A stretch of DNA of 57,374 bases, the filler included, from Jimgerdemannia flammicorona (taxonomy: Eukaryota): NCBI GenBank assembly GCA_003990765.1. It is 3 parts of 3 records of this genome, joined end to end, with 100 filler letters (N's around TTAATTAATTAA, not from the genome) between each part and the next. Parts side by side here need not be neighbours in the genome. Positions count along the whole stretch, not along the records: positions 1 to 19,061 come from RBNJ01002038.1; 2 more parts are not named here. One strand, 5' to 3'. Positions 1 through 34,507 of this stretch are shown piece after piece. The position numbers were made by a program, and so were the translations under genes. Position 1 is the first letter of the stretch. The number at the start of each line of letters is the position of its first letter. Below the pieces are notes generated by a model that searched no databases, was not told the origin of the DNA, and worked only from the letters and a program-made list of their open reading frames with translations.

Positions 1-40
<40 letters not shown>

Positions 41-82
41 TCTCTGTCAGGAGGTCGCAATTCGTATCGTGTAACTACGAAC

Positions 83-378
83 CTTGCCGTTATTCGACGT
101 AACTTGTGTGCTCGGCAGATCTGCATTGGCCATTATTGGTATGGTGATATCTTTGCGCATGATGGACCGCTTGTAATTGGTATTTGTATTCTTCTGAAAG
201 TGGCCCTCTTTACTGAACAGGATCTCGTAATTGACCCCAACCGCAGCGACCATCGGAATTGAGGCACTCACGGCGCCCGGGGCACACCACTTGTTGTAGG
301 CGTTCTCGATATCAATGTTTTGATCACGATCATACTTGATCCATTGCTCTCCTTTGTAGTGCTGAGGGTCAGAATTAT

Positions 379-418
<40 letters not shown>

Positions 419-944
419 CGGAGGATGTGTAAAAGAGAACGCAGTTGTTGGTATAAAACACACATCACGAGCACTTACTTTTCCTCTAACATCCTCCTTC
501 CAGAACCACTGGTATGGGAGAGATTGGAATGTTGGCATGGCAGGAGTGGGATTCTGAATACGCAGAAAAACATTCCGTATTAGTATGCCATCAGTGTCAC
601 AGGAGATCACAATTCGTATCGTGTAGCCGCAAACCTTATTACTCGTGGGCTCAGCAGATCTGCTTACCGTTATTGGTATGGTGATATCTTTGCGCATGAT
701 GGACCGCTGGTAATTGGTACTTGTATTCCTCTGAACGTGTCCCTGTTCACCGAACAGGATTTCGTAGGTGACCACAGACGTGACACCGCCGACAATTTTC
801 ACCGAAGTAATCACGGGGATTGAGGCCCTCGCGGGGCCCGGGGCACTCCACTTGTTGTAGGCGTTCTCGATAGTAATATTTTGGTCACGATCATACTTGA
901 TCCATTGCTCTCCTTTGTAGTGCTGGGGGTCGGAAATTTAACGA

Positions 945-977
<33 letters not shown>

Positions 978-1110
978 TTTTAAAAAAAAAAAATTAATCA
1001 GTAAAAGAGAATAAGGCCGTCGTTGGTATGAAGCACACTCCACGAGCACTTACCTTTCCTTGAACATCCTCCTTCCAGAACCACTGGTATCGGAGAGGTT
1101 GGGATGTTGG
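83..1110 (-). repeat. Tandem duplication of a WWE exon-intron unit (~560-575 bp), each copy with an intron at the same position
   Basis: Near-identical blocks, e.g. ccttccagaaccactggtat at ~495 and ~1071, and tccattgctctcctttgtagtgctg at ~340 and ~901. The introns carry (TA)n at ~383-413 and (TTA)n at ~946-977. Confidence 0.9.
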
Positions 1111-4100
1111 CATGGATAGAACGCTTGAATCACCTAGACCCGTGGTAATCTCATCGTTTTCTATTTCTTTCCATTTCTCCGAGAGCACTTTTCTGAGTAT
1201 TCGATATACTTCCGTCGAATTCTGTTGATTGACACCCTCGAGATTAACACCTTCTCTATCCTTTGTCGGTGCCCCTTTCACCGCCTGTTCGGGCTTAAAG
1301 TCGATGATGCGCACTTTGTGAATCTGCGTTTTCGGCAAAGTTCGCATGACGGCATTCACAATGATCTTTGCGCCCTTCTCATGTGGAAATCCAGAGAGGC
1401 CCATGCTAATGGGCGGCAGGGCAACAGTCTTGCACCCTTTCGTGTTTGCCAGCAACAGGGCGTTGGTGATGGCCGCGTGCAGGAGCTCTTCCTTCTTTTT
1501 CGTACCAGAGGACCACACGGGTCCATTGACGTGTATGACGTATTTCACGCCTTTCGTTTGCAAGTCGCCGGCCGTTGTTACGATCGCATGCCCTTTCGTC
1601 ATAGTGCCGTGCTGCGCAATGTAGTTCTTGCATTCGTCGCGAAGTTGCTGACCAGCGGCATCGGCGATCACTTTGGCAATGCCACGCCCATGTTCGAGCC
1701 TCGCGCTAGCCGAGCTCACGATCGCGTCAACGGCTTCGTGAGCAATGTCTCCATAGACGAGCTACCAAACGCGATACAAAATGACGAAATAGAGCAATGT
1801 GAGCGAATTGCAATACCACGACGTGACTGGTTTCGTGCGTGCGATAGATAAATCTAGTAAATCAACTTTACCAACCTCGATAGCTTGATTAGTTGCCGGG
1901 ATTATCACACCGAAATCCATTTCCGGAGGAAGGATTTCGACGCAGTGTTGTTGTTCAATTTTCGTAACCTTATCTCTTTGCGCCAAAATGATCTCTGCCC
2001 GCTGACGGTCGATTCGTACTGGAGACGATTGCAACTCAGATATAACCTTGTCAGCATATGTCTTGAAACTGGCAAAAGCCTTGTCGATAGTGTTGCGTGC
2101 GCCAGAAATTTTGTATGAAAGGCAGTCGTCATTCCTTTCTGGTTTGATGCTGTGAACATAATGAATATTAATTAAATAGATGAAGATAGTTTCACATTAT
2201 TTCCGTTCATCATTCAAATCATGCACACAAGAGACCCGATCACAAGATTACACTTACCGCATATTATGCTGCATGGCGATCGCGTCGATTTCTTTTTCAT
2301 CTTTCCGTTTCTCAAACCATAAGCTGTAGCGGACGTCAGGAAACGTGTATGATCGCGAGGCACTTTCATTTTCCAGCAAAGTGGCCACGTTGACCTTGTC
2401 TGACACATCAACCACCTCATCTTTAACACCAGGGCCCACAACTGAAATGCCGGCGCTGATGCTAGTCCCGATGCCCGAAGCAACCACACCGGAGACGACA
2501 CCGGAGACGACAGCGGAACCAACAGACTTGGTAACATCAATGGCACCGGAGCCAACGGTGACGACACCAGAGCCGACAGCGGAACCAATGGACTTGGTAA
2601 CATTAATGGCATCGGATCCAACGATGGCGACACCAGAGCCGACGACCTTGATTTCATCATAGGCAGTACCACGAACGAACTTGGCACCATCGGCGACACC
2701 GTGGACGGCACCGGATGCGACACTGCCCCCGGCAACGGCGACCCCACCGACAACACCAGCAATAGCACCGAACCAGCTGCCGTCGGACTTGGGCATATCC
2801 TTCTGGGCAATAGCGACTCCGCCTACGATTTCAGCCGTCTTCTCTTCGACAATATCGGCTTCCTTAATGATCTCGGTGACGGACGTCCCACTACCAGATC
2901 CGATGATGATGCCACTAGGGCCAGCAACGTCCACCTTTTCTGCCACGATGTCAACTTCCTTGACGATGTCGATCTCCTTGATGATCTCGGTGACGGAGGT
3001 TTCGTTGCCAGATCCGATGACGACGCCACGAAGGGCAGCAACATCCACTTTCTCGCCGACGATGACAGTTTCTTGCCCGACCTCTCCGATATCGACCCCC
3101 TCCTTGTCGCCGAGGCTAACACCGAGCTCCTCGACGGTGGTAATGGTATCGGTCTCGGTTATCACTTCGACGATTTCTTCGACCTTCTTCGTGCTCGAGT
3201 CACCACCGACGACGACGTCTTCTTCCTCCACCTTGACAACCTCGGTTTGGCCGATAGTAACGATTTCCTCCTTGGCATCTGTTACAAAGAAGTATGCGAT
3301 TTTAGAATGAGTTATTTGGCACTGTAGGTTCAACGGAAGAAACCCCCCGGGATACGCAATATTAGAAGATAAATTACATACCCGTCAACGACAAGATCTT
3401 CTCATTAACCTTCCCTGCGGCACCCTTGCCGAGCTTGACAGCGCCGACCGCGGCAGCTCCAGCAGCAACAGTTGTGATGATAGCGGCGTCACCAATAACT
3501 CCAGCGGTATCCTTGAGAACGGTGCCAGCAACATCGCCAGTCTTGACAACGGCACTTCCAGCATACGTGGCACCATGAACAAGGCCGACGACACCTTCCT
3601 TAACGAGATTGAGATTGCCAGCGCCAATAGCACCATCCTTGGCCAGGATACCGGCGCCAACAGCGCCCGCAACGACGGCACCTCCAATAGCGACGGCAGC
3701 ATCCTTCTTCTCGGCTTCGGCGATAACAACAGTAGTCGCGGTGGCACCGACAAGATCGGTAGAGGATGGAACGGATGTCGAGGGCTTCTTCCTACCTTTG
3801 CCCTTCTTCGGAAAAATAGGAACCAGGAAGGTCCAGTGGCACTCGGGGTGCTGCTCACGGTGCTCCTTGGGCTGCTTCACCTCAGTAAGGAAAATTTCGA
3901 GCGAGGTCTTGCCGCCCAGAACGAGGTCCTTCGGGGTCAGACACAGGGACTTTTGGGTAAGCGAGAAAATGTACTCTTGGGGGTTGACTCCCCAGCGCTG
4001 GAAGACGCGGTCGCCGGCCTTGGCGGGGTTTTGGATCAAAGGCCAGTACGACTCCTTGTTGTCTAAAACATTGTTCAAATAATAAATAAATGTTAGATTA

Positions 4101-4631
4101 CCGTGCGAACAAAGATGGGGGAGAGGAATTAATTACAGGCGACAAAAACAAAAAGTATTTACCAGCGCACACATCAATGACCAAACGACTCTTCAAGTTT
4201 ATTATGTAACCTTTGCGGTAAGTCCAAAGCTGGCTAGCATAATCTTCGGAGCGCAGGCAGGTTAGGACGACCTCGGCACCAGCGTGCGTGGAAGAGTTTT
4301 GCACGTCGAAGACGAAGCCGTGAAGGGCACTCTTGATGAAGAACCATCCTTTGGGGAAATCGTTGGTATCTTGGATTTTCTTGTAGCGCCAGACGCTCCT
4401 GAAGCCATTGGGAAGGGCTCTCTCTTCGGCAGCGCTGATTAGCGGGGTGGTGAGGAGGACCTCTTCGCCGGAATCTGAATACGAGAGAGATTATTTCTTG
4501 TTTGTAGTGGCGGAATCGAGAGAAAAACAGCTTGTATATTGTCAAATGAAGCGGTTCCACTCCAAAAAAAAAAAAAACGTACCAGCTTCTATCTTGAACC
4601 TTTGACGTTTGGTGGTGGTGCTAGTGCTCAT
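83..4631 (-). CDS. Multi-exon ricin-B lectin - G/A/V-rich linker - KH-like - macrodomain - WWE - WWE protein (PARP14/PARP9-like architecture); 3' end lies beyond the window
   Basis: Phase-consistent GT-AG exons 4631-4583, 4474-4163, 4062-3382, 3278-2258, 2149-1876, 1761-1054, 922-635 (or 668), 553-479, 361-83. Ricin-B: FPKGWFFIKSALHGFVFDV..SQLWTY..FQRWG. Macro: IELVYGDIAHEAVDAIVSSASARLEHGRGIA..TTAGDL..YVIHVNGPVW..VALPPISMGLSGFP. WWE x2: YQWFWKED..WIKYDRDQN..IENAY..Y.RSIMR. Donor GTTCGT at 82 opens an intron that runs off the edge. Confidence 0.85.
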
Positions 4632-4780
4632 TATTGTTACGACAATGGACTGTGGGTGGTGAAGAAGGACACGGGGAGAAGAGGTAGTGTGGGTTGTGGG
4701 GAATGCGGGTGAGTTTTGGAATGTACAAGGAGGGTGCGGGTGGGTATATAAACAAGGGTGCGGTGGTGTATAGGGGGTAT

Positions 4781-4838
4781 CCAGGTGTCAAGATTGGGGG
4801 TGTCCAGGTGTCAAGATTGGGGGTGTCGAGGTGTCAAG
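4781..4838. repeat. ~2.5 copies of a 23-bp unit ccaggtgtcaagattgggggtgt upstream of the lectin-macro-WWE gene
   Basis: Direct repeats at 4781-4803 and 4804-4826, partial copy at 4827-4838; TATA-like tttatata on the minus strand at ~4745-4752. Confidence 0.7.
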
Positions 4839-5008
4839 CTTTTGGCTTTTGGAATCATACTGCGCATTGCTATATACCGTCTTATAGCCAGAGTGACGTA
4901 CGCCACAGCTGCGTCATTTAAGTGATGTATATATCCTCAGAAGCAATGGCTTTGATGGATTTCCTCAGCTCACGCGTGACGTTTGTAACCTAGCTGCCGT
5001 CAAAGTTT

Positions 5009-5058
5009 CATTGGCTAGCTGCTGCCATTGGCTAGTTGCCGCCACAGTTCCATTGGCT
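5009..5058 (-). promoter_or_regulatory. Three clustered CCAAT boxes (cattggct on + strand)
   Basis: cattggct at ~5009, ~5026 and ~5051, about 400 bp upstream of ATG 4631; function inferred. Confidence 0.4.
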
Positions 5059-5204
5059 TTGCTGCCATTTTGTCCCAGTTGATATAGGCGTTAATTATAG
5101 GGGTGTGACTCCTACTTGTGATTGCTTTGTTGTAGATAAATAAGCTTATCCCTTAGTCTATAAATGAGAATGTCGCTAAGTAGGTGATGAAAGAAAAAAA
5201 AAAA

Positions 5205-5560
5205 TTAGTTACATTTCAAAATCCAAATTTAACTATATTATAAAATAATAAATAATTAAATATAATTAAACTTATTAATATGTTAGTAATATTTTTAACT
5301 ATATTATTAATATTTAAATCATTTAAATTATATATATTATTATTTTATAATATAATCAAATTTGGCTTTATAAATTTAACTTATAAAATAAATAATATCA
5401 TCAAGAGTTTCAGAAATTTTGAGCCTAATGATAATGATTAAGTATAAAATAACCATAATAACTAAGTGACTTCTAGTTATTGTAAAATATTTCCTGAATA
5501 ACTTTCTAAGATATAAAGATTCAATTACTTCATTGCAGTAAGATGTAAAGAGGTAAAGAG
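5205..5560. other. Very AT-rich tract, probably a terminally decayed repeat
   Basis: Almost no C/G and no CpG; same texture as 28020-28440, 41100-41590 and 42715-43376. Confidence 0.5.
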
Positions 5561-6849
5561 GTTGTAGGGAGAGGGAGTGGGAGGAAGGATAATTATAGCA
5601 GTTTGTCAGAAGGGTGTAGAGTGTAGATTGAGAGAGAGAGGGGAGGATGAAGGAAAAAGTGGCGCATGCCAAGAGGTATATAAGTTGCATGGCGTCCATG
5701 GCACGTGAAAGCCTGATGCAATTAAATACTGTATATACTTATTTTTTCAACTAGCAAATTTGCTACCAGATACCAGATACACATTGATACACGATAGTGC
5801 TGATACGCCTGGAGCAGATACCAGAAACTTTTCATGTGATGTAACTACGACCCTCCACTTAGTGGATTCCTTAGCAAACGCGTCATCCTAATTAGATCAG
5901 ACTACAAACGGCCCCTTTTATTACTGTGAACCTCATAGAAACCACATGGCCAAGGCAACGGCTTACCCGAAACGATTGGCACCCGAACTACAACATAAAC
6001 CGCATCGTATCACTGTACAATACCAGAATTTGTGATGTAAACGACTTCCCTGACTTCTGACGTAAGCACCTGACAGATAGCTAAGCTGCGATGTTTATTG
6101 ATATAAATATTTTTCTTCATTTGCAATGGCAAGTAATGTAGGTATAAAGGCAATGCAATGAATATGGACAAAATGACTAATATTTGACAAAGCATCATAG
6201 CAGAAAATTCTTCAGGAATCATCAAATTGCAAGCTTTATCCAAAATATGTCAATCTGGAATTTATCCGAAATGGAATGCTGTAGAAGCAGATGTACTGGG
6301 TTCAGAATGCTGTAGAAACAGAATGCATCAATTTTGAATGTTGTAAAAGAAGATGCATTGAATCATAATGCCGTAGAAAATGATGCACTCATAATACTTC
6401 CACTCCAAATGTTGCTGAAGACGAATACACCAGAATGCCTAGAATGTCATAGAACCAGAATACATAAGGTGAGAATGACAAAAATATTTTGTGATGACGA
6501 ATTTGGACAAACCAGCAAGAAGACGCGGAATCCAAGGAACTATGGAACTTGGAAGAAGAAAGCCATAGTCCATTATCAGCAAAAGACGACAGGTTCATTT
6601 CCAGGCTTGACAGGTCGCCTTACGAAGTTTTATTTAGGCAAAAGCGTCGCGATAAATCCGACTTTTGCAGGCAAACGACCGCGACAAATTTCAAGTAGAA
6701 TTCACAGATGCCTGTTCCTTTGGGTCGCGAACACTGGACACGCAAAAGCCGTTCGAGAAATGCAGCCACGAGGAGCTTCAAGCTCTCTGGTATCGAGCCT
6801 TATGACAAGGAGCGTTATGAGCTGGTGGGACACGCTCTAGTTACTGGAC

Positions 6850-6891
<42 letters not shown>

Positions 6892-7055
6892 TTATCTGAA
6901 AACTTTGGGCGATGTTTTCAGGATTGTGTGGAAACATTCTCTCCAGTGACTTTATTCAAAATCGTCTTGGTTTGATTTTGGAGTTACACAAGTCACCAGT
7001 CACCATTTAAAAATTGATTACTGCGGTCTTCCTTTTTGCATTACAATCCCATCCT

Positions 7056-10000
7056 ATGGATATCGCAAGCGCGAGCAGAACCACCCACACGGAGAATGCC
7101 ATTTCTGTACACGACTGTATGTTTTGGACATGCTTGATGTTTGAGAGCGTGGCACGTAAAGACACTGAACTGTTTTTTTTGCTAATGCTTGCAGACGAGA
7201 GGATAACGGCAAGGATACTGCCTAACCTAGGCCATGACGTACACGATTTTCAAGTCTTCCATTGGAAAATCAAAAGTTGGCGTGCACTGACGGATAGGAC
7301 GCTCAGCCCGGAATTTGAGGCGGGCGGTTGGAAATGGTATGCATGCTGTCAATGTATTCGCACTTGAACTATCAGCCTGAGACAACTGGGGTTTTAACCG
7401 TTTTTTCCGCACATGCAGGAAGATTATGCTCTACCCTTTTGGCAACGGCCAGAACGAAAATTCCTCTATATATCTTCAATTCGCAGACCCCGGGGCGGCC
7501 GAGCAGGGAATGCATTCGTGCGTTCAGTTCGCGCTGGTGATGTCCAACCCGTTCGATCCGACCCAATGGGAGTATTACAATGCTCACCACCGATTTTGTG
7601 CTGACGAGTCTGAATGGGGGTTCACTCGATTCTACGATATAAACAAGATGTTTCAGCCAAATCACAGGCGCTCGCATCCCTTGATTGACGATGACCAGAC
7701 TACCATTTCTGCTTTCGTGCGTGTCGTAAAAAATCCTACTGGGGAACTGTGGCCCAACTTTGTTAGGTGAGTGTGCCTTGTGAGAAAATGTAGCGAACCC
7801 ATTCCTTGCGATTGTAAATGTAGCACACTGTTTGGGATCTTTTTACTTAGCTACGACTCCAAGAAGGTCACTGGTTTTGTTGGTCTCATAAACCAGGGAG
7901 CGACAGGTTACTTGAACACGGCTGTACAATGTTTATACATGATAAAACACTTTCGTAAAGCCGTCTATAAGATCCCAACGGAATCCGATGTACCCACCAA
8001 GAATGTTGCCTTGGCTCTACAGCGCGTGTTTCATAACCTCCAGTTCTCGGAAGTACCTGTTGGTAGGTAGGCGCTAGGATGCTAAGTACCGGAAAGAGTG
8101 CTGGAACGTCTTATAAGTCAGCCAATATCATTTAAATGTAGGTGGAGGTTTTGAATCCGCTCGGCTGTTTGGCTAACGAACAACGAACAACGATTCCGGT
8201 ATGCTTCATGTATGATTAGGTACAATGGAGCTAACAAAGAGTTTCGGATGGGGTTCTCTCGAAACGATCATACAGCACGACGTCCAAGCATTTACCCGTA
8301 TTTTGCAGAACAAGCTGGAATCAAAAATGAAGGTGGGTAGTAAATGCTAAATTATGCGCCATTTGATGCCAGATACTATGCTACAATACGTCTATCTGAT
8401 GATATTTTGCCATTTTTAGAACACACCGGCTGATGGCAACATGAAGAAACTATTCGTCGGCAAAATGAGAAGTTATGTCAAGAGCATTATTACCGATTAC
8501 GAGTCCTCGCGCGTGTATGATTATTATGGTAGGCCGAAAAAGCGCTTCTTTCGAATCACCAATGCAGATAAATATTGATTCTTGACTTATTCTGATTTCG
8601 CAATATATTAGATATTCAACTCGATGTGAAGGGGTGCAAAAACCTCTATGAATCTTTTGTGAAATTTGTGGCTCAGCACTCGGAGAAACAACAGATCGAA
8701 GGCCGCGGTTTGCAAAACGTCAAAAAGGGTGTTTATTTCGAGAGCTTCCCGCCCGTGCTATATATACAACTGAACCGGTATGAGTATGACATTTCAAAGG
8801 GTGCTATGGTCAAGGTGGGTCCAAGATATGAATAGGCGCATAGTTTCGAATAATTAATCGTCCGTCTTTTAGAAAATAATTAATGCCTTTGGTGTTTAGA
8901 TTAATGACCGCCATGAATTTCCATTGGAGATCGACCTCGAAGAGTTTCTTCCTCTGGCCACTGACAGCAACAGACCGCACAAATATCTCCTTCACGGGTA
9001 AGAGTGCTTGATCAGAAAAATAACGGCCAATGAGAACACCCCGCACATTGTTTGCATTGCAGGCTGTTGCTGACATTTCACTTTTTCATATTCAGCGTCC
9101 TAGTACATAGCGGTAGTCTTCACCGTGGCAAATACTTTGCTCTTCTGAAGCCCGAAAAGGACAGCACATGGTTCAAGTACGACGATGACCGTGTTACTCC
9201 TGTAACGGACCATGATGTGTTTGAGGATAACTACGGGGGTGAGGCGCCCAACGCCAACCAACTCATGGCCCTGAGACCACAAACGGAGGCAAGCAAAAAG
9301 GTTACGAGCGCGTATATACTTGTATATATTCGTGAGTCCAATGTCGACGAGGTGCTCGCGCCAATGGCACCCGGTGATATTCCACCCCATTTAAGTGCGT
9401 ATCGTTTCTTATTTTTCCATTTTTTTTTTTTTTTTTTTTATTCTTTCTATTGGGTTGTCTGCTCGGAGAACCTGGAAGCAACAAAGTTTTGTGGTGATTA
9501 GGAAAAAAACACATGGTTGTCATATTACAGAACTTTTATTGTTAACTTGCTGGTCTGAACGATTCACTAAGAAAAACATGTTGACGAGAAGGACCTGCAG
9601 GAAAAGTCTCTGACTGCCAAGGTGAGCTGCATTCAGCAGTTTTCGCGTAATATATGATTCCCTTGTTACAATATCTAATACATGTGCGATCATTTGCTCC
9701 AGGTCATGACAGACGAGACGTTGAAGGTACATCAAGGTTTCGATCTGGCGAATTTCAACGATACGACGAAGCAGTCAGAAATATCATCCTTCCTCGTAAA
9801 GAAGGGGGAGACGTTTGCAGTTTTCAAACAATCAGTCGCAGACCATTTCCAAGTCCCAGTCGACAGATTCAGGCTGTGGATTCTTGTCACCCGACAAAAT
9901 CGGACGGTCAGGCCTGACCAACCGATCCCGGAGACAGAAGCCAATTCGTGTGAGCGTTGGGATATTTATTTTATTTTATTTTATTTATTGAATTTCCTTC

Positions 10001-10809
10001 CAAATAAAATCGGATGTTGTTCAATGGTGTCAGGAGCCATAAAATGCCTGTACTAACATAGTATTTGTTAAACCACTGGTTTGTAGCAATGGAGGTCATA
10101 CAAAACGAAATGAATGGCAACCAGAGCACACTGCGGCTCTATCTCGAGGTGATTGATCAACCGATTAACGGTAAACTCTGGCCTCCCAAGGGTACATTCG
10201 CCGGCTCATATCCGATGATCTTTATCAAGTACTTTGACTTGGAGACACAGAAAATCGAGTTAGTAGAGCTTTTATATTATGATGTTGCTACTTTTCTATA
10301 GTTGTGCCGAATCACTTAATCAGATATGGCCGGATATGTGTGTCGACAGGAGTTGCGGAAAGCTCTATGTGAGCCTGAACGGGAAAGTTTGCAATATCAT
10401 TCCGATCTTGAAGAAGAAGAAGGGATTCCCATCGAATACTAGGCTGAAATTGTTCGAGGTAGGCCAATTTGATGAGTGGGACGTGCCCTCAGTATGGCTA
10501 AGTAATGCCTCAGCAATTGACATATATATTACAAATTAAAGGAAATCAAACCCACCATGATTGAAGCCATGAAGATAACAGCGACATTCCGGCAGTCCGA
10601 AATTCAAGATGGAGACATTATTTGCTTCCAGAAGGAGATTTCTGAAACAGAGTAAGTAACATGGAAATACTATTGAATTTATTCTTCTGTTACTCAATGT
10701 AATTATCCTTCAAAATTACATCAGGGCTGCCGAATATCGGTCGCAAGGTTATGCGGCTACCATAATCGAATTCTTCGAGCAGATCATCATCGCAAAACTA
10801 AATCAGTGA
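7056..10809 (+). CDS. USP7/Ubp15-like protein (MATH + USP + UBL1-2), catalytically dead and C-terminally truncated, ~785 aa, 15 exons
   Basis: MATH: FHWKIKSW..SPEFEAGGWKWKIMLYPFGN..HHRF..EWGFTRF. Cys box: GLINQGATGYLN. Also ELTKSFGW..QHDVQ and FPPVLYIQL. His box: VLVHSGSLHRGKYF..WFKYDDDRV. UBL: HQGFDL..RQNRTVRP..EIQDGDIICFQ. Stop TGA at 10807-10809. The frame can be kept through all exons (two AAG acceptors needed). Confidence 0.88.
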
Positions 10810-10904
10810 TTTGTGTCTGGGTGTTCTGTCCCTGCTATATACATAATATCTGTGAATTATTCAATATCAATATAGTAAGACTTGTGTTTTGTTTACATAT
10901 ATAG

Positions 10905-13900
10905 TGATGATATCTTTGAAACCAGTAACATCAGAATTCGGAAGACTGTCTTGACTTTGCAAGCCACTAGTTGCAAGTTGCAACTCAATTGTGACTCATC
11001 TTGATCAGAAGATGATTTCTATCTGAATTCATAATAACTCATGATGAGTCCAATAGTATACTATCTCAAATCAGATAACTCTACCCTCTGGACCAAAGAA
11101 AAAGATCCTCAAGATATAAAAGAAGTATCAAGAGAAGAAGTACAAAACATCAATTACAAATAAGAGACTTATTATAAAATAAAATATATATTATTTGCCA
11201 AATAGTAAGGCCAAAGAACTACTTAGATCCATTAGTTCAAGAATGAATATTTTCTGATATCAAGAGAGTAATAAGATTGAGTACAAGAAGAACTCCTAGT
11301 CTGAACCTCTATTTTTTTTTTTTTTTTAATAGACTCAAAGTCCTGCAGATTTTTATTGAAAGAGAACCTAGACTTTATAGACCAAAACCCTCTCCCACTA
11401 CTCATCAAGCACTACTTCTCCATTAACTTAGGCTAACTATTATCTAGCAGCTCAACCATGCCAGGTGCAGTAGGGTCTATATTGGCCTATATCTCATTCT
11501 GTACACCATGCTCTCCCTATCACTAGGGAGAACTCAGCTATTACTAATAACTGAAAGTATATATCCAAAATCTCAACATATATACAAGACCACACTCAAG
11601 CTGAATAGAATAGCCCCTGCCACCCTAAAGAGAATGACAGATAAAGAAAAACCCTCATCAAAGTACATCATAGTAGATAGGACCTGATTCTCTCAGATGA
11701 GATAAGTAGAGGACTTATATATGAGGTAAGAGGAGACCCCTAATACTCTACTACTCAAGTCTATAGGTCTTGATCACATTGCTATATCAGCTCCCAGTTT
11801 TAGTTAAATGCAGCCAAGATGCCTGAAATGGATAGCCTCAGGCCCCCTGACCCCCCCCCCAATGATCAGGGCCCAACCTGTCAAATTGTTAAAAGAAGCT
11901 GAGAGTGATATCTACCACCTAACCACTCTGCACTAATTAAAAGATCTCACCAAAGCCCAGCCTAGTACTCTACTGGTTTACTATAATCACCCTTCCTCCT
12001 ATCTATAATGGCCATCTCTCCTCTCATCCCAACAATACCCAAAAAACAATTATCTATACCAGAACTATACTTACTGGGAAGCTTGCCAAAGCCAGAGGGC
12101 CCTACCACAAGTACTGAGGACCTATAGGTAATCTATACTGGGTATTTGATGCCTAAGGTTGGCCAACTTTCTATGTAACCTGTAATGTACCAAAACAGTA
12201 CCTTGTTGGTGATAGCAAAAGAAAGAAAGTACTACACCAAAATGAATGCACTCTAGATACAGCCAAAGGTACCAGAAACTATGAAAAAGTGGAGAAGACA
12301 CTGATTGAATATTGATAAAAGAGCAACTCATCACCATTGCCTCCCTCCTACTGCTCTGCAACAGGTACAGTAAACCAATCTGAGATAGAGGAGGTAATAA
12401 TTGTAGAAAGTAGACTTAGAAGATTGCTTACTAAACTATTGTAACTGGTAAGGTAGTAGAGAAAGAAGTGGTCTGAATCTTTATATAAGAGACTCTTACT
12501 ACTATACTCTTAACTGTCAAGAAATAGAATCAAGAATCACTACTGCTGCTATGTTTTTAGATATAATAAGAATGAGATAGAACATTACTTCTATTAAGAA
12601 TTCATATAAGTTAGCTCTTAAGAAATTGCAGATACTATATATATAGATGAGTATAAATAGAAATTATTTAAAAGAGTCCATCTAGTACTTTCAAAAAATC
12701 AAATCAAAGGTCTAATTTAATTTGAAATTTGATTTGAATAACTCTCAATTTGATTCAATTCGAATTGATTTAATTTATTTGGGAGTACTAAGTCTGCCAG
12801 ATCTTCAGATATATACTCTGGATTATTCTCAATCTAGAATATGTCAAAGTCTCTGATATTTAAGAACTAATAAGCTACTATACAGACTACTTTAAAGAAA
12901 TAGTTATAGAAGAGGCCCAATCTACTATTATAGTTAAGAGTGATGAAGTTCAAGACCTTTGGAACTCTATCCTAGAGAACAATTCAGACCAATTCATCTA
13001 TAGCCTGATTGTACTATTTCAAGACTCTCTCTTGAGAGTTTACTATCTTCAGAATTCTACAGATATTTTCTACTTCATAAATAACAATACTATTGACTAG
13101 TGATCTCAAGAGTAGAATAACTATGTACTCTTTGGTGATATTATCAATAATGACATCACTCTCTCAAACAACTTAGAGAATAATGGCAACCCACTTATCC
13201 TACTAGAAGATGATATTAACAACTTTCTTTTCTCACTCTCAGAGCCTACCACTATCCTCAGCACAATTGTGGGGGATGCAGAAAATGATTTGTTCAGACT
13301 CTCTGAAGAAAATGAAGAAGAGGATAAGAATGATATAATTCTAGTCATATAAATTTTAAGATATATAAAAACAGCTCTATTAGTCAAATTGAGTAAGTTA
13401 GTTAGTTATATAAATAGTGACTGCATATTAACTAGCCAACTTTATTACAAATATAAAATTAGTCTTATCTAGTTAGTTAGTCATCCAAATTTCAAAAGTA
13501 TGCTAAATATTATCTTTTAGTAATTATGAGTTATATATAACTAATTATCTAGTCTTATATATACATAGTTTGAAAACTATATAAATATCTCTTGATCTAT
13601 AGTAAATAAACCTCAGTCAATTAGTTTTACCAACTTAAGTTCTAAAAGAGAGTATAAGAACTTTGGAAAAAGACTTCAAGAGTTGAAGAATTACTCTTGC
13701 TACTGTCTCAGAAATCAAGTCCAGTTAGAAACTTAAGAATAATATATAAATAAGTTAATTAGATTGCTGTTGATTGATTTATAATACCAACTTAAGTTCT
13801 GAAAGATAAGAGAAGTCAAGTGCAAGAACTTTGGAAAAAGACTCCAAGAGCTAAAGAACTACCCTTTGCCACTACCTCAGAACTCAGATATCATAAACCT
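10905..13900 (+). mobile_element. Decayed, divergent relative of the LTR of the 43377-52162 element, interrupted by a LINE fragment; boundaries approximate
   Basis: Alignable blocks: caagaagaactcctagt (11284) vs 43718; cagatcttcag..gatgaagttcaagacctttgg (12798-12962) vs 43948-44112; strongly CpG-depleted. Confidence 0.65.
11312..12470 (-). mobile_element. 5'-truncated LINE 3' end with poly(A) tail and 13-bp TSD
   Basis: Poly(T) at 11312-11327; AATAAA upstream on the minus strand; TSD gtctgaacctcta (11299-11311) vs gtctgaatcttta (12471-12483); homologous to 41595-42702. Confidence 0.85.
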
Positions 13901-14100
13901 CAGAAATTAGATATAAGACTCTAAAACTTAAGAGATATAAGTCAGTCAGTTAAAGCTGCTACAGAAAATTATTACAAAACTCAAGATACAAGACCACAGA
14001 AATTGGATATAAGATTACAAAACTCAAGATATAAGTCAGTCAGTTAAAAAATTACTACAGAAATCAGAAACAAGATTAGAAAATACTACTATAGTCAGAT
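13880..14100. repeat. Degenerate short tandem repeats (~21-bp core such as aaactcaagatataag / cagaaattagatataag)
   Basis: Repeated gatataag-containing units; gtcagtcagttaaa occurs twice (13940, 14036). Confidence 0.55.
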
Positions 14101-14710
14101 AAAACTATCAGGAAACTCAGTTTAGGATACCAGAATAACTACCAATATACCAGAAAACTCAAGAATAACATATAATATAAATAATCACCCTTTTGATATA
14201 AATGGCCAGTTATATAACTAATGACTCAAGATATATAAATTCTAACTTGATATGAATGAGAACAAATTAAACAGCAGATAAAGTAAATATTAAGTCAGAA
14301 GTATTATTGGAAAACAAATAGGATATAGTATAGACAATTCAGTAGTATATTGAGCCATATATATCAGCAAACCAGATATACAAATCATATAGAACATTTT
14401 GAGGGCTCAATCAGGAAATTTTTCTAAAGACTTGACTATTTAACTTAAGAGCCCAACAGTTATCTATAGTGGATAATTTAGGTGAAGCTAGCCAGCAGTA
14501 AAGTCAGAACTAATATCAGCCCACTTTTGAAAAAGAAGCCTATACTATTGTCAAGATAATTCTCACTCTGTTCAGAACCAGTAGTCAAGAAACTAAGTTA
14601 GAAGAAAGATTATAATTTATCAGGCACCTTTCTCCTATATAATTCATGTTACACCAACTTCAAGCAATGGTTTTTCGACATAACTTAGAGAAAAGGTATT
14701 ATAATAATAT

Positions 14711-17700
14711 CATCAAGCAAGAGTTCTGATGGGTGTGCTGGGTCAGGTGGACCTGGGGCTTTTGGCTGGCAGAATGTGGAGAGGGGTTATGGCCTGGAGA
14801 TGGGGGCCTTTGGAGGGTCGAAGGGTGCCAAGGGCTCTGGAGGTAGACTGGTGTCTGGTAGTCATATGGAGAGGCCTGGCCCCCCAAGCTTTGCAGATAA
14901 GGTGAAGGAGAGTGGGTGGCCAGCTGGATCTAGAGCTGGTGCTGCTGTAGGGAAGGGCAAGGCAAGCCTAGAGAGGGGGAGAGGTACTCAGGTTGGGGAT
15001 GCAAGCATAGGTGCTGGAGGTGCTATGGCTGGGGATGGGACTGCTGATGGAAGTGTGATGGGGAATCAGAAAAAAAAAAGAGATGTAACAGCTGATGGCG
15101 GAGTGGGGCAGGGGTTCTCAATGTGAAAGGGGAATCTGGCCGATGGTGTAATGGAGCTGGTGATTGCACTGTTACTCAGAAAATTGATCTCAGAGTTTGT
15201 AGTGACACTGTGCTTCTGAGGCTTAGCAGTGACAATGAGGATGGTCTTGGGGCTTATCTCGAAGCAGGTGGCTGGGGCCACATTGGTGAAGTTCCTGAAG
15301 GGTCTGGAGGGGGTTGAGGTGGGCTTTGAGAAGGCAGGCCCCCTGGAAGAGGCTCTGAAGACTGGAGTGGCTGTTGGGGAGGTAGTAGTCCCCATGGTGC
15401 ATTGTCTGAGGTGGGACCCCAGGGTGGTACAGCTGCTAGTGAAGGGGGTACCTATGGTGATGAAAGAGGAGACTAGGAGGAGGGTAGAGGAGGTGATAAT
15501 GGAGTATGGCAATGTGGTGGATGTCAGTTTCTAGGTATGGGAGAGGACCTCTATCAGGACAGATGATATAGATGTAAGGATTAGACTGGCTGAAAGAGAG
15601 GCCACAGGGAAGATGAGTGACTGGCCCTCAGTGTTGATGTGGGGGGCTTTTGTCTGTAAGGTGTCAAGGGTGAGAGAGAGTGAAGAGGAGGAAGAGAACT
15701 TTTTAGAGGCTTTGAAGAAGTTGAGTGGTGCTGTTGAGAGGAGGGTAAAGGCTTGGAAACTGTATGAGGAGTCAACACATCTGGAGATTATTGATAGGAA
15801 GCATATTCATACTGATAAGAGATAGTAGGAGAGGGCTCAAGGGTGCAGGAGGCAGAGGGAGTTATTGGCAAGCATGAAAGATAGGGTTAAGATGATAACT
15901 GGGGGCCTTGCGAAGTCTGGGAGAGTAATGGCAAGTGACTGGGCTAGCTAGAGAGGTAGTGATAGAGAGAAGGGCCTGGAAGGAGCTGAGAAGGCACTAC
16001 CCAAGGACCTGTTTGCTGATGGTACTTTTGAGGTCTGGGACCTGGTTGTTAATGACACTCCCCCTCTGATCAGGAGGGGTCCAGCAGTGAGAAGTTGGGT
16101 GGCAGAGGATGAGCTGATGCAGGGTGCTCAAAAGGTACACTTTGGGGTTCCTGACATGACTAAGGGTAGACAGGTGGTGGTCATTAGTGAGGATGAGCTG
16201 GTGGTTGTCCCCAAGGAGGGATGGGATGAGACTGCTAGTGTAGGGGCTGATACTATGATGCTGGATGCTGGAAGGCCAGGGATACCAGGAGGGAAGGAGG
16301 TGGGGAACCTGCTGTAGATGAGTAAGATAATAGATAACCTTGTAGCTGAGGAGCTGGGGGAGGTGGACCTGCAAGTGATGAGTGAGAAGTACTGGGCAGA
16401 GATTCTGAGGGGAGAGAGAGTGATGGGGGCACTGAAGATGGAGATTCTTGCGATTTTCATAGAGAAGGAGGGCTATGAGATTGATAACGAGTAGGAGGCA
16501 GAGCTTATGGTGGTTGCTGGTGAGAGGGCTGCCTACTGTTGGACTGAGCGACATGGTTTGCAGCTCTGGCAGGAGGTGTGTCTGGAATATCATGAGGACT
16601 TTGAGGAAAAGGAGGATGGGGCAATAGCTGAACTTCTGGAAGGGTTGGAAGTATGGGCAGCTGAGGAGAAGGTGTTGGCTGCTGAACATGACTTGGACTT
16701 GGCACAGGAGGAGTTGAATGCAGATTTGTAGAGGCTGCAATTGATATCTAACATTATTCCTAATGAACAGTACAACTAACATTTTCTCTCAGAACGTGAA
16801 TGGATTACAGGGTACTGGGCAGTGTAAGAACATTTTTACTTAGCTGAAGGGATTGGAGGTGGACCTCTTTTTAATACAGGATATATGGTGTGAGGATGAG
16901 ATAGATCAAGTAGAGTGGACTAGAGAATAGGGAGGAGCTACTGCTTGGAATGGCAAAGTGGCAATTCTGGTAAGGAAGGATAGAGGGGACTTGAGTGGAA
17001 TTCAGAGCTGGGGTGACTGTTTGATCTGAGGAGATTGGCATCAACCTGGGTGGGAATTAGTGAGAGTTGGCTCCTACTACTGTCCTACAGTTAGGAGGGA
17101 GCAGATTGAGTGGATTAGGGATCTGTTAGAGGAGGGTGTCTTCTTGGAAAAAGGTGTCAATGTTCTGGGGAATGACTTTAATATGGTAAGGGATCCACAG
17201 CTGGATCGAACTGATGGAGGGAGGAGTGCAGGTGGAAGAAGTGGTGGACTAGATAAGTGGGAGGAGGTGGAGACCCTTAGCTCCTTAGAAGATATGGGCA
17301 GAATATGGTGGGGTGACAGGAGGGTCTATACATACTGGGTAAATGGACTGGGTATGAGGATTGACTGGATTCTGATGGCCAAATGTTGGGGTATTGATAT
17401 ATGGAGGACTTTGACAGTAGAGTGGTGCCCTTGGTCTGATCACTAGGGGCTATTGGGGCAGGGACAGTTTGGGGGGAGCGGAGATGGACCCAGATATTGG
17501 TACCTTAACTCCTCTCTACTGGCTGAGCAGGGTTTGTGGGACTCATGGATGGCAGATATCTAAGTGAAGATTGCCACCTAGATAAGTGAGGGTGCATCTG
17601 TGGATATCTAGTGAATAAGACTGAAGGAGGCTACAAGGGTTTATTGAGAAGAAGCTAGTAGAGAGGCTGTGAGGCAGAGAAGGAAGTGAGTGAGGTGTGC

Positions 17701-17861
17701 TTCCAACAGGCTGATTAGATTGCAGATAGAGTAGACTGAGTTGCTTTGCTCTAAAGAGGTGGAGGATTGGAGGTTGGAGCAGGTGAAATTGGAGGTAATG
17801 GAGCTATAATATATATTGTGAGCTGAGGAGGAGATATATATAAATGGAATGGCTGCCAGAC
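14711..17861 (+). mobile_element. Decayed L1/Tx1-like LINE: ORF1 plus APE endonuclease of ORF2, cut by an LTR insertion
   Basis: ORF2 from ATG 16763: NIFSQNVNGL..DLFLIQD..NDFNMVRDPQLDR..YTYW..RIDWIL..WSDH..YWYLNSSLL. Upstream ORF1 has in-frame stops. G-rich sense strand, CpG-depleted. Confidence 0.85.
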
Positions 17862-19016
17862 TGTAAGAGGGTTACTTTCTTAGGGAAACCATTACATAGT
17901 TCTGAAAGGGTTTTTCTGGAAATTCTGGATATTCTGGAAGACTGTTTTCTTATGGTCAAGATCAATTTTGTATGAAGTATGTCCTCTACACTTATTGATT
18001 TCAAGTTCAGGTTGACATCTCAACCAAATCCTTTTTCGGACTAGTTCTGGATGTTCAGGATTTTCCATATTTCAGGAAGTTCAAGAAACTAAGACCAGCT
18101 TAGTTGAATTGGCATATTGCTGCAGACAATACCCAATTAGGAAATTTCATGATGTGGTTAGAAGTGAGACCTAACAGGGGGTGGATTTACTTAAGAGTAG
18201 TTGGAGGGTTATTAAATAGGTTTATTCGCTATTCATGCTATTGCTATACTAGGAGTAGTTGTGTGAAGGGATATTGTGGGGAAGTGCTTAGGAGTTGTTG
18301 TGTTCAGATTGTTCAGGTCTGAGATTCTGAGGTCTGGGGGAGGGGATATTTATACTAGTGAGAGGCTATCTGGACTATGCTGAATATGGATGTAGCACTA
18401 AGTGCCTTGCTGAGTTGGAATGCAGTCACATAGTACAAGTATGATCTGACATGTAAAGAGATCGTCTGACTGCTGAGTCAGTTCACAGTCATGTCATATA
18501 AGGCTAATCTAACTATACTATGACTACTAGACTATTTATAGGTTTAGGCACTGTCTGGGTAGTCTTCGATGATATCACCATCAATTGCATTATCTCTGAT
18601 AAAGTAGTCATCTAGAAAGAGTGGTGCGCAGATTACTTCTCCTTGTTCACTAAGGTAATAATACATTGGAACTTCATCTCCATCCCACAAGATTGCATCA
18701 TCAGTCTCGTATGCAGGGTAAGGTGTTGGTGGGTGAAAGAGGGGTGCATCATCTTTACTTTTATTGGTTTTGCTATCTGCATATCTTCTATAGGTTACAG
18801 CACTATGAGTCGCGGGGTTGTAGTAAGCTGATAGCTGTGATTCATGTCACTCATACTCAGGTGGTAGAGTGGTTGGTTCAATCTTGAGGGTTGTCTAGAG
18901 GTATAGATTGTGTTCTCTAGTCTCTTCATTGTAGTTGAAGTAATCATGGGTGAATGTGGGTTGGTATTCGTGCCAGTGGTCATTGTCCCAATAAGTCTCA
19001 TATGCTGTTATGAATT

Positions 19017-19017
<1 letters not shown>
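17862..19017 (-). mobile_element. LTR of the 52938 family, reverse orientation, 5' part lost at contig end
   Basis: Reverse complement of 17862-~18600 matches 53680-54417 including the ...ctcttaca terminus; no PBS follows, so it is a solo or 3' LTR. Confidence 0.88.
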
Positions 19018-19061
<44 letters not shown>

Positions 19062-19161
19062 NNNNNNNNNNNNNNNNNNNNNNNNNNNNNNNNNNNNNNN
19101 NNNNNTTAATTAATTAANNNNNNNNNNNNNNNNNNNNNNNNNNNNNNNNNNNNNNNNNNNN
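19062..19161. other. Artificial contig linker (44 N + TTAATTAATTAA + 44 N)
   Basis: Six-frame-stop spacer flanked by homopolymer contig ends; identical to 38221-38320. Confidence 0.97.
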
Positions 19162-19203
<42 letters not shown>

Positions 19204-20248
19204 AGCAGAGCGGAAGAGTTTGAGTCAGATCCTCCCGTGTAAGCCACATTCTCCACGTGCGCAGGATTCATAGCTTCTAACTTGTCTTGGCAATAGCCTT
19301 TCACAACCTAATATATGGTGCATGAACAGACATACCTCTGGTGAGGGAACGGCGTCGCCAAGAGAATCCACAGAAAATATCTGACCTATACCGCACATTT
19401 GTGAGATAGTAGTCGATACCAACGAAATAACCCGAGTATAATCAATCTCTGGAAGTTTCTTCTTTTTTTTTCTAAAAAAAATAAAAAGGGAGGGAGTATT
19501 ATTGATGTCCTGTGGCTAGAAAGAAAACTAAAGTACTAGTAATACGAGACACGTGACCGGACACACAACGTGCACGAAGAACGAGGGCTTTTGACGCGCC
19601 CGAGGCTAGGGTTGAACGGATGGCGTGATGGGGTGCGGCGGGTGTGTCGTTTATGGCTACTATAAGTGCCAGCTTTTGGAGTTTGTGGTTGCTATGGGGT
19701 GCTGCTATAAGTTCCCTTGCAATGATAGGTACGGGGCAGGTGAAGGTATACAGTGCGGAGGATTGCATGCCGCTACGGACTGATAATGTATGTACCTTTC
19801 CGTCGTTCGTGATTTGAGTGGGAAGATCTTTTTTTGGGCGCACGCAATCCCACTCAATCACTTAATTTGGCATTCCCAAACGCATTGAGCGGAGACCATC
19901 TTGCTACACAGCAGGAGATGAGGGCTATATCACACGGAGGGCAAGGTCATCTGGGCATGTGATCCGCCGCGCCGCACTCCAAATCAGAGTGAATGTTGGC
20001 TGGAGGGCTATGGGCGATGATTGATGAAGGTTTGGGGTGATTGGGAGGGTCTCATCTGGGTATGTGGTGAAGGGTGGGCTCAAAAGGGAATTTGGCAGTT
20101 GCTAGGTGGCACTCGGAACATGTTCCCCATTATAGCCGCAATCGACAAATCCAGCCGTGACGTGACAAAGCCAAGCCCCCTCCCCTCCATAAATCTGGGA
20201 CTGCCACGACTTCTTCCTTTAATCCCCCCCTCCCACCCCCATCCCCAT

Positions 20249-22935: not shown

Positions 22936-23000
<65 letters not shown>

Positions 23001-23022
23001 GGGTTCTTCAAATTTTGTGTGA
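20249..23022 (+). CDS. RFX: RFX-family winged-helix transcription factor (Sak1/Rfx1-like) with dimerisation domain and poly-Q tail
   Basis: DBD [54 protein letters not shown]. Also LRRHTSLNHLAQAA, ARQFLMKWSFYSSLAIRDLTMKSANSFGSFHIMRLFFDEYIFYLVE. Stop at 23020-23022; start ATG uncertain. Confidence 0.93.
20837..20943 (+). other. U12-type (minor spliceosome) AT-AC intron
   Basis: 5' site ATATCCTTT, branch TTCCTTGAC (20921-20929), 3' AC; removal restores GQSK-YHYCG. Confidence 0.92.
22943..22998 (+). repeat. (CAG)n tract encoding poly-Q in RFX
   Basis: CAG run with CAA interruptions in the last exon. Confidence 0.9.
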
Positions 23023-23819
23023 AAGTAATTTCAGCGAGGACGACTGGTTTTGCTGGTCTCACATTGCATGACAGGGTCATGATGTTGTACAGATTTGTCA
23101 TTTTTGCCTTTCTCCTTCCTGGATTTATTTGTCGTTTCTCATCCACGTTCGTAGAAGTCAGCAAATAAGTATCTTGCAATCGCCTCCTTCACCACCTTTT
23201 TTTTTTTTTTCCTCTCCCCTTTTTTTTTTTTTTTTTTCCTCTCCCCTTTTTTCTTCTTTATTTTCATTCGAATCTTCATTGCCCATATGCGCAAATAGTT
23301 GAAAATAATGATGTATTGGAATATGTGTGAAATGATGCAAGTTGTTTTCTCTTCCGTACGATGGGAGGCCATTTTTGCCGAGGCGCATGTCGCTGCCGGA
23401 GACGTACCAAGCTAATCCGCGGGGTTTGAAAAAGTCGAGCGGACAATCTTACGGGAGTCGAGATCGTTTATTTTTGGAATTGTTCTCGATCTGTGGCATC
23501 AGTAACACGATCGATTATCGACCAACATTATATAACTATGAATGTCCAAAAACGACTTAATTAGTCCTAATCCCAACAAATATATATATATACTTCATTT
23601 GAAAGGAAGAAGGAAAAAAAAAAAAAATCATCTATAATCAGCGAAAAACTCGTACCTGAAACCACACTACCCTCTCACAAACATGCGAGATCTCATGGAC
23701 TGTGACTGGGACTTGTGCCGAGGGCAGGGAACGCCGCAATAACTCGATCTGTCGGGCTGGCGTGGGCAATTCGATATGGAGTATTCTCACAACACCAAGC
23801 GCCTCAGCTCACAATACCT

Positions 23820-34160: not shown

Positions 34161-34507
34161 GATTGGGGGTGTTGCGTGTTGGGTTGGAAGAGAAGGACAT
34201 TTGCAGATCGGGGCGACTGCTTTTTGAACCATGAACCCAATTTGGTCATGGCATCATGCCACTTTTTTTTTTTTTTTTTGGCTAATAGTCCGCGGATATG
34301 TCTGCAATAGGTTCAGTTAACAGGATGCGTGAATCTTTATAATTACATCAGTTGCATTGGTTACATAGTCACGGAATGGTCCGAGCTGGCAGCACCATTG
34401 TCGTATGTTAGTTCGTCATGATTGTGGAAGGGGGCCCGTATTGTCGTTGGATTCATTTCAATATGTTATTTTTCACAGCATGTTTAAAATTGAGTACCAG
34501 TATCACT

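Follow-up and report, generated by a model that had tools for sequence, protein, structure and literature searches.

A predicted catalytically dead USP7/Ubp15 paralogue in Jimgerdemannia flammicorona and its Cys-less counterparts in other fungi

USP7 is among the most studied deubiquitinases (DUBs). A stretch of DNA from Jimgerdemannia flammicorona (57,374 nt, assembly GCA_003990765.1), referred to here as the window, contains a gene related to USP7 and to its fungal form Ubp15, in which both catalytic residues and the activating C-terminal tail are gone. The locus raises the question of whether such a gene is a duplicate in decay or a protein retained for something other than catalysis. A first-pass annotation, made from the sequence alone, had favored the latter and named a decoy, a substrate trap or a scaffold as possible roles. 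Our results indicate that the gene is very likely a selected, catalytically dead, lineage-specific USP7/Ubp15 paralogue. The fuller statement, that it encodes an expressed and selected pseudo-deubiquitinase that would bind Ubp15-type clients without cleaving ubiquitin, is considered probable from the sequence evidence. The window consists of three contigs (19061, 19059 and 19054 bases) joined by artificial spacers of 44 N, TTAATTAATTAA, 44 N at 19062-19161 and 38221-38320; the true context of the USP7-like gene is therefore 1-19061 only.

The gene model comprises 15 exons on the + strand (7056-10809), with a coding sequence (CDS) of 2358 nt encoding 785 amino acids. The only stop in the model is the terminal TGA at 10807-10809, no in-frame stop occurs within the 785 codons, and all 14 introns (73-177 nt) are of the GT..AG type, with 28 of 28 splice dinucleotides intact. 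The encoded protein contains a MATH domain, a USP core and the ubiquitin-like domains UBL1-2, and then stops; the earlier description of 15 in-frame exons ending just after UBL2 thus stands in the model. Contigs from two public runs (X1 and X2), which contain 34-38% of the sampled words of the window, were aligned on 5500-13500, where only stretches at least 90% alike are visible. These contigs are spliced, indicating that they represent cDNA. The features of the gene and the evidence for each are as follows.

7056-10809, + strand: whole coding span of the USP7/Ubp15-like predicted pseudo-deubiquitinase gene, 785 aa (model, per-exon Pfam, spliced contigs)
7056-7116, + strand: exon 1, start ATG at 7056 (junction sequence agrees with canonical fungal copies in the alignment)
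7195-7336, + strand: exon 2, start of MATH (joint 7336/7419 in X1 and X2)
7419-7766, + strand: exon 3, MATH, with EWGF at 7612-7623 (MATH_2, alignment)
7851-8062, + strand: exon 4, Cys box NQGATGY (UCH; aligned to human USP7 205-275)
7906-7908, + strand: GGT, Gly203 at the position of human USP7 Cys223 (phmmer alignment; X1 contig piece)
8220-8332, + strand: exon 5, switching-loop region with QHDVQA, Ala278 being GCA at 8288-8290 (human 276-312; joints on both sides)
8420-8528, + strand: exon 6 (model; contig joints)
8612-8814, + strand: exon 7, fingers, with a 4-residue deletion near 8682/8683 (alignments; contig joints)
8900-8997, + strand: exon 8 (model; contig joints)
9096-9394, + strand: exon 9, HRGKY His box, kept Asp and end of the USP core (UCH; human 453-539)
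9130-9132, + strand: AAA, Lys441 at the position of catalytic His464 (phmmer alignment; X1 contig piece)
9181-9183, + strand: GAC, Asp458, the kept equivalent of Asp481 (alignments)
9572-9621, + strand: exon 10, linker ~11 residues shorter than canonical (alignment; joint 9621/9703; acceptor 9571/9572 from homologue continuity only)
9703-9949, + strand: exon 11, UBL1 (Pfam, model, alignment)
10087-10258, + strand: exon 12, first part of UBL2 (USP7_ICP0_bdg; joint 10258/10350)
10350-10458, + strand: exon 13, UBL2 (Pfam; X2 contig spans 10350-10456; one X1 contig joins 10434 to 10540)
10542-10651, + strand: exon 14, UBL2, with the acidic ligand loop SEIQDGD at 10596-10616 (USP7_ICP0_bdg; comparison with human loop 758-764)
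10725-10809, + strand: exon 15 with stop TGA at 10807-10809, ending at the start of a would-be UBL3 (alignments; X1 contig 10725-10979)

Pfam was scanned exon by exon. UCH (PF00443) matches were found on exon 4 (E=3.4e-11), exon 7 and exon 9 (E=3.2e-11), together with a weak match on exon 5 (E=0.13), and the best PDB matches of these four exons by phmmer are all USP7 chains (E 2e-20 to 6e-8). USP7_ICP0_bdg extends over exons 11-14 and corresponds to profile positions 1-150 of 241, with exon 14 reaching E=4.6e-13; a phmmer search of PDB with this UBL2 exon gave no matches at E up to 0.01. The MATH domain is of the MATH/TRAF-like kind and aligns with fungal USP7 copies over its whole length. The N-terminal order of MATH, USP core, UBL1 and UBL2 is the same as in human USP7/HAUSP and fungal Ubp15, both of which have the architecture MATH-USP-UBL1-5.

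Compared with these enzymes, the predicted protein carries Cys223Gly, His464Lys and Glu298Ala, is four residues shorter in the fingers and ~11 residues shorter in the linker, and is without UBL3-5 and the activating tail. Exon 4 aligns with residues 205-275 of human USP7 (phmmer, PDB, E=3e-20) with Gly (GGT 7906-7908) opposite Cys223, so the Cys box NQGATCY reads NQGATGY. Exon 9 aligns with residues 453-539 (phmmer, PDB) with Lys (AAA 9130-9132) opposite His464 and with Asp481 kept, and the His box GGHY reads RGKY. In exon 5, aligned with residues 276-312, Ala (GCA 8288-8290) is found opposite Glu298, changing QHDVQE to QHDVQA, and further substitutions occur at the Glu286, Phe291 and Met292 positions. 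The fingers region encoded by exon 7 has a 4-residue gap relative to both human USP7 and the fungal canonical copies. The two box changes, the QHDVQA motif and the short fingers deletion had all been read off the sequence in the first-pass annotation, and each was recovered in the alignments. The triad Cys223/His464/Asp481 of active enzymes is thus Gly/Lys/Asp here. The Lys in the His box is the sole non-His residue among the 116 rows that show a His-box pattern (121 rows examined).

The C-terminal activation module is missing as well. Similarity to a full-length fungal USP7 (P0017, 1115 aa) ends at reference residue 784, and no tblastn match to full-length fungal USP7 was found past 10652. 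USP7_C2, which represents UBL4-5, had no match in the per-exon Pfam scan, and tblastn with six canonical C-terminal halves, searching for UBL3-5, gave a best E of 1.5 within contig 1-19061. One X1 contig is unspliced and continuous from 10725 through the stop to 10979, which suggests a transcript without onward splicing to further exons there; the possibility of additional UBL exons downstream, raised earlier, is thus not borne out by the X1 contig or by similarity within the contig. The UBL4-5 domains and activating tail of active enzymes are therefore absent. UBL1-3 of USP7 form a binding platform, UBL4-5 and the tail are indispensable for full activity, and the catalytic domain alone has a poor affinity for ubiquitin that is increased by UBL4-5 (PMC6335408; papers are cited here by PMC number). 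Since the nucleophile, the general base, UBL4-5 and the tail are all gone, the protein cannot act as a USP7-type enzyme. Judged by sequence, it is a USP7/Ubp15 homologue and not an active member of the family, and with a DUB fold that lacks the catalytic residues it is a predicted pseudo-deubiquitinase.

Two alternatives bear directly on the altered core. The protein could still be an enzyme that works through non-canonical residues, by analogy with claims reported for USP39 and USP52 (PMC10919355), and the equivalents of Asp481 and of the oxyanion Asn are indeed kept. However, the nucleophile and the general base are both replaced and the activation module is absent. Among paralogues, the residue at the Cys site is variously Ser, Asp or Gly, and hence no common substitute emerges; together, these points argue against such an enzyme. 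We regard this alternative as extremely unlikely.

Alternatively, the dead core could grip ubiquitin on clients and shield or trap the conjugate, protecting it from other DUBs, the proteasome or readers. In line with this, identity between the USP core and active enzymes is still 64-66%, and equivalents of channel residues (PMC6188144) are kept, namely the post-Cys Tyr, His294, Asp295, Val296, Gln297, His456 and Tyr465. However, the UBL4-5 domains that raise ubiquitin affinity (PMC6335408) are missing, and since the catalytic domain alone binds ubiquitin poorly without them, strong ubiquitin binding is unlikely for this protein. Of the 72 canonical rows with both Cys and His, 71 have an unaltered QHDVQE; where either residue is replaced, the motif survives in only 10 of 26 rows (one of the 26, the J. 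flammicorona protein P0036, being an alignment artefact). Paralogues read EHDFLL at this site, and the fingers deletion adds to the erosion. The loss of UBL4-5 and the eroded channel for the ubiquitin tail argue somewhat against a trap driven by ubiquitin, and we consider this explanation unlikely.

The surfaces expected to dock clients are retained. In MATH, the motif EWGF (7612-7623) stands where the aligned canonical copies have DWGF, which we take to be the MATH motif of USP7, and an E133D change listed for X2 would give DWGF there. In UBL2, the acidic loop SEIQDGD comprises residues 740-746 (10596-10616). The corresponding loop of human USP7, 758-DELMDGD-764, binds ICP0, GMPS and UHRF1 peptides through a KxxxK motif, and E759, D762 and D764 are each required for these peptides (PMC4457826). 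By motif matching to this published human loop, equivalents of all three residues are present in SEIQDGD, and the UBL1-2 platform with its acidic loop is that of the family. The earlier proposal that the binding modules were kept is thus supported by the three KxxxK-ligand residues of the UBL2 loop and by MATH, UBL1 and UBL2, all of which have diverged at approximately the canonical rate.

The gene is transcribed and spliced. In X1 and X2 alike, introns 2, 4, 5, 6, 7, 8, 10, 12 and 14 are spliced out at GT..AG boundaries, so at least nine of the 14 introns have a contig joint among the joints listed; the transcription and splicing assumed in the first-pass annotation are thus seen in the contigs of both runs. 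Introns 1, 3, 9, 11 and 13 have no listed joint, and in the alignment their junction sequences are continuous with homologues. The acceptor at 9571/9572 gives PPHL-K-KHVDEK in the window and PPHI-K-RHLDGEK in the J. flammicorona paralogue P0057. A frameshift at this AAG acceptor (9571), previously considered as a weak point, is not found, the junction sequence being as in two J. flammicorona paralogues, on homologue continuity only. X1 is nearly identical to the window over exons 2-9, differing from it at 1 to 4 letters in each exon piece listed. Both the Gly and the Lys codon are found unchanged in the X1 pieces 7847-8061 and 9095-9394, which contain one other letter each (8032 and 9216). An X1 change at 8264 results in Thr270Ala. 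Three joints (8062-8418, 8481-8620 and 8525-8620), at which letters may lie between the joined sides, were rejected as exon skipping; their ends are not GT..AG, and loose ends there read a P0036-type paralogue.

Sequence differences between the window and the X1/X2 contigs indicate constraint. Among the 83 differences, 40 are listed, and 34 of these lie in the CDS, with 21 synonymous and 13 non-synonymous. Given 498 synonymous and 1857 non-synonymous sites, the crude pN/pS of the listed differences is ~0.17; this crude form of a dN/dS comparison is not near 1, in agreement with the selection presumed in the first-pass annotation. The synonymous excess is significant against a synonymous share of 0.21 (binomial p = 3e-7) and against a generous share of 0.30 (p = 1e-4). 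By region, synonymous and non-synonymous differences number 12 and 4 in the N-terminus and MATH, 8 and 8 in the USP core, and 1 and 1 in UBL2. A neutral simulation on the CDS (2000 runs) left the frame open in 0.15% of runs at 0.1 substitutions per site and in none at 0.2, while the branch from the duplication node to the 785-aa protein is ~0.45 amino-acid changes per site. No stops, frameshifts or lost splice sites mark the window copy as a pseudogene, and its substitution pattern is not neutral. The gene is expressed and under purifying selection, as a pseudo-deubiquitinase requires.

The divergence is unevenly distributed over the protein. In the USP core, the predicted protein shares 64-66% identity with canonical fungal copies, compared with 77-80% between canonical copies. 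The corresponding values are 49-57% and 62% for MATH, 45-54% and 55-56% for UBL1, and 48-52% and 48-61% for UBL2. The extra divergence is therefore concentrated in the USP core, normally the most conserved domain, and MATH, UBL1 and UBL2 have changed at approximately the canonical rate.

Several observations weigh against a selected client-binding protein. The MATH_2 match, on exon 3 alone, scores E=4.4e-7 and 30.6 bits, slightly below the cut-off of 32, and phmmer with the MATH exon gave no PDB match at E up to 0.01, so the groove residues are without solved-structure numbering. No library type is recorded for X1 and X2, whose RNA content is deduced from the spliced contigs. The substitution counts are small, coming from 40 listed differences with the two runs pooled, and the pooled contigs may mix alleles, isolates and close paralogues; the differences from the window common to both runs are 4 synonymous and 4 non-synonymous. 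In X1, T->C at 8249 changes the switching-loop Trp265 (human Trp285 position) to Arg. One X1 contig joins 10434 to 10540 with ends that are not GT..AG; the resulting mRNA falls 22 nt short of the model, and its frame would be shifted inside UBL2. The same contig has 10-nt and 2-nt insertions and several substitutions in the 3' untranslated region, and it may represent a damaged close copy or allele, or a mis-assembly. An X2 contig spans 10350-10456 normally. The competitor or adaptor role set out below is itself an interpretation of sequence.

These observations have to be considered together with the possibility that the gene is a decaying partial duplicate, the 5' two thirds of Ubp15 drifting to a pseudogene with residual transcription. 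The gene has lost its catalytic residues and its C-terminal third, the USP core is evolving faster than in canonical copies, and the 22-nt-shorter X1 junction shifts the frame. The genome is repeat-rich, with a gypsy-like element in the window, but on another contig than the gene, and the deposited models of relatives are fragmentary. On the other hand, the gene has no stops or frameshifts and its splice sites are intact despite the long branch, an outcome very unlikely under the neutral simulation. A synonymous excess is seen in the listed differences and spliced transcripts in two runs; several diverged copies have the same architecture, and this architecture arose independently in Thelephora. 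Decay is thus very unlikely in our judgment, and the earlier view of a loss of catalysis with docking retained, as opposed to random decay, is upheld by the open frame, the synonymous excess and the spliced contigs.

The selected paralogue belongs to a small family within its species. A first homologue search with the 99-aa His-box exon as query retrieved fungal USP7/Ubp15 proteins, of which 120 were listed, and the best match is a J. flammicorona protein with 71% identity. P0001 of J. flammicorona is canonical-looking, with HGGHY and QHDVQE; P0001 and P0154 (both seen as proteins) show that the canonical form coexists with the gene in the same lineage. Three further J. flammicorona proteins, P0036, P0057 and P0121, are 64-82% identical to the 785-aa protein by domain. 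P0057 has Ser at the Cys position (NQGTTSY) and P0121 has Asp; P0036 keeps its His (GGHY) and ends at the same point as the 785-aa protein. Both P0036 and P0057 read EHDFLL in place of QHDVQA, and they share the 4-residue fingers deletion and the linker shorter by ~11 residues. The three are deposited as 'hypothetical protein' or 'TRAF-like protein', with models that are partial or read through introns. In two trees, the 785-aa protein groups with these Cys-less or eroded copies (support 100), and this clade is sister to canonical P0001 (support 97 and 99). Loose ends in X2 read P0036-type paralogue transcripts, and one loose end there reads a paralogue that terminates in a stop at the same position. 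P0199, a P0036-type fragment, has the locus-tag prefix BC938DRAFT, as does P0155, which maps onto the window; the common prefix and the P0036-type transcripts in X2 mark them as paralogues in one genome and not orthologues. Collectively, at least four diverged copies form a small expressed family among the J. flammicorona proteins. P0057 and P0121 are both listed with a longest contig of 23257 bases and may lie side by side as a tandem pair.

The coexistence of the canonical form (P0001 and P0154) with this gene would also suit a different role, in which the protein is an allosteric or scaffold partner of active Ubp15 or another enzyme, by analogy with pairs of a pseudo-DUB and an active DUB. 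Pseudo-DUBs are often allosteric activators or scaffolds (PMC10919355). However, known examples of such pairs belong to the JAMM family and not to the USP family, and we give a partner role little credence.

With catalysis and its activation module gone and two client-docking modules kept under constraint, a non-catalytic client binder is favored. In this proposal, the MATH groove and the UBL2 acidic loop would recognize short linear motifs of the classes that Ubp15 binds, and ubiquitin would not be removed. The active enzyme may thereby face competition for its clients, or the clients may be held and insulated, the protein acting as a naturally occurring dominant-negative or adaptor. For the dead USP core, the main part would be that of a folded spacer whose affinity for ubiquitin is weak at most. 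Which of decoy, trap or scaffold applies we can only infer, and competition with Ubp15 specifically is a plausible mechanism from the domain content, to which we give slightly less than even weight.

Cys-less USP7 copies were also identified outside J. flammicorona. Among the 120 listed matches, 63 show a Cys-box pattern, including four Rhizophagus copies with NQGATGY, one NQGATDY and P0057 with NQGTTSY. Cys-less USP7 paralogues were further listed from Pisolithus, Melanogaster, Galerina, Rickenella, Thelephora and several Mycena species; the Cys-box exon search picks candidates by shared 5-residue words, which favors Gly copies and yields no frequency. A HMMER search of 1.84 billion cluster representatives, which has no such word bias, gave 136 Cys, 7 Gly, 3 Asp, 3 Ser and 1 mixed Cys/Ser among the best 150. 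Like the 785-aa protein, the Cys-less copies of other fungi show Cys replaced by Gly, Ser or Asp and an eroded QHDVQE; in some, Gln, Tyr or Asp has also taken the place of the His, and none has Lys there. The Rhizophagus and Boletales copies are full length, unlike the truncated J. flammicorona protein. The Thelephora copies end after UBL2 as it does, losing similarity at reference residues 784-814 of 1115, the same boundary. In public annotation, Cys-less relatives go under names such as 'cysteine proteinase' or 'ubiquitin carboxyl-terminal hydrolase'.

To place these copies, a 39-row tree (quick search, LG+G4) was used. The Cys-less copies nest in their own taxa (Rhizophagus, Basidiomycota) beside canonical copies, parsimony over the 39 rows gives 8 changes of state, and at least three origins lie on starred branches, in Endogonaceae, Rhizophagus and Basidiomycota. 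The Rhizophagus Gly copies were considered as orthologues of the J. flammicorona gene and rejected, as the trees put them inside Rhizophagus. The search of relatives for Cys/His-dead orthologs, suggested in the first-pass annotation, thus turned up Cys-less paralogues in J. flammicorona and separate ones in Rhizophagus and Basidiomycota. Among 68 cluster representatives of 700-1400 aa, UBL4-5 went undetected in 6 of 8 Cys-less proteins compared with 14 of 60 with Cys (Fisher p = 0.006); as detection relied on a single reference with E up to 1e-5 and some gene models may be incomplete, this difference is no more than suggestive. We tentatively propose, as a possibility that falls short of probable, that USP7-derived pseudo-DUBs are a recurrent fungal invention, in which Ubp15 was duplicated and killed at least three and up to eight times (by parsimony), with recurring Cys->Gly/Ser changes and, at least twice, a cut at the same post-UBL2 boundary, the products being dominant-negative regulators that tune access to MATH- and UBL2-type clients. 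If true, the family may belong to the lineage-specific signalling expansions of plant-associated fungi, since many of the hosts (Endogonaceae, Rhizophagus, Pisolithus, Thelephora and Melanogaster) are presumably plant-associated fungi with expanded genomes. Four cluster representatives of 1821-2916 aa (P0232, P0233, P0268 and P0289) have 4 to 6 matches each to the 70-aa Cys-box exon, with Ser, Cys, Ser and Ser at the four catalytic positions of P0233, and may be fused models of tandem USP7-like arrays.

USP-fold proteins without the canonical Cys and His are known from USP39/Sad1 and USP52/PAN2, which are kept for non-catalytic roles (PMC10919355). These are ancient and widely conserved, have other partner domains and are not derived from USP7, whereas the J. 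flammicorona protein is a young, lineage-specific USP7 derivative. According to the same source, ~13% of DUBs are considered inactive and often act as scaffolds or allosteric activators, and the inactivity of USP39 and USP52 is debated and under reconsideration. The dead USP7-derived paralogue fits this pseudo-DUB concept; no account of a USP7-derived pseudoenzyme or of a natural dead USP7 paralogue was found in the open-access literature searched. The combination of MATH, a dead USP core and UBL1-2 is a natural separation-of-function experiment, which keeps two client-docking platforms and drops catalysis together with the activation module needed only for catalysis. Interest lies mainly in the independent recurrence of this dead, often truncated design across fungi. 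Its repeated origin, in two cases with the truncation at the same place, points to a general route from enzymes of the ubiquitin system to regulators, and the recurrent dead copies provide independent replicates for pseudoenzyme comparison. Public annotation mislabels these dead USP7-derived genes.

At the locus itself, the public model also appears to be in error. P0155, a deposited partial J. flammicorona protein of 113 aa, agrees with exon 9 at 65 of 66 positions; the N-terminus of P0155 corresponds to 4663-4839 and the remainder to 9175-9372, part of exon 9. From this mapping, P0155 looks like a chimera that misses the 785-aa gene. On the same contig, the 8.2 kb 3' of the gene is AT-rich DNA with a 96-nt tandem repeat and open reading frames (ORFs) without Pfam matches. 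X1 depth is 655 at 6568-6834 and 186-307 at 11107-11640, compared with ~20-50 across the gene, with many loose ends; these high-depth flanks are probably repeats or other abundant transcripts. The remaining features of the window are listed below.

50-1761, - strand: ORFs upstream on the same contig, carrying WWE (E=7e-15) and Macro (E=2e-32) domains, two signalling modules linked to ADP-ribose
6856-6890: long poly-T tract just 5' of the gene
9424-9440: long poly-T tract within intron 9
13881-14063: tandem repeat downstream of the gene, 96-nt unit, 1.9 copies
20223-23165, 25941-27047, 29370-30236, 32741-34253, 36898-37818 and 39984-40436: ordinary genes on the other two contigs, which contain an RFX transcription factor, a Sel1-repeat protein, an actin-like protein, COX15, a SacI-domain phosphatase and a BTB protein
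47033-49448, + strand: ORFs on the third contig with dUTPase, reverse transcriptase, RNase H and integrase zinc domain, presumably of a Ty3/gypsy-type retroelement

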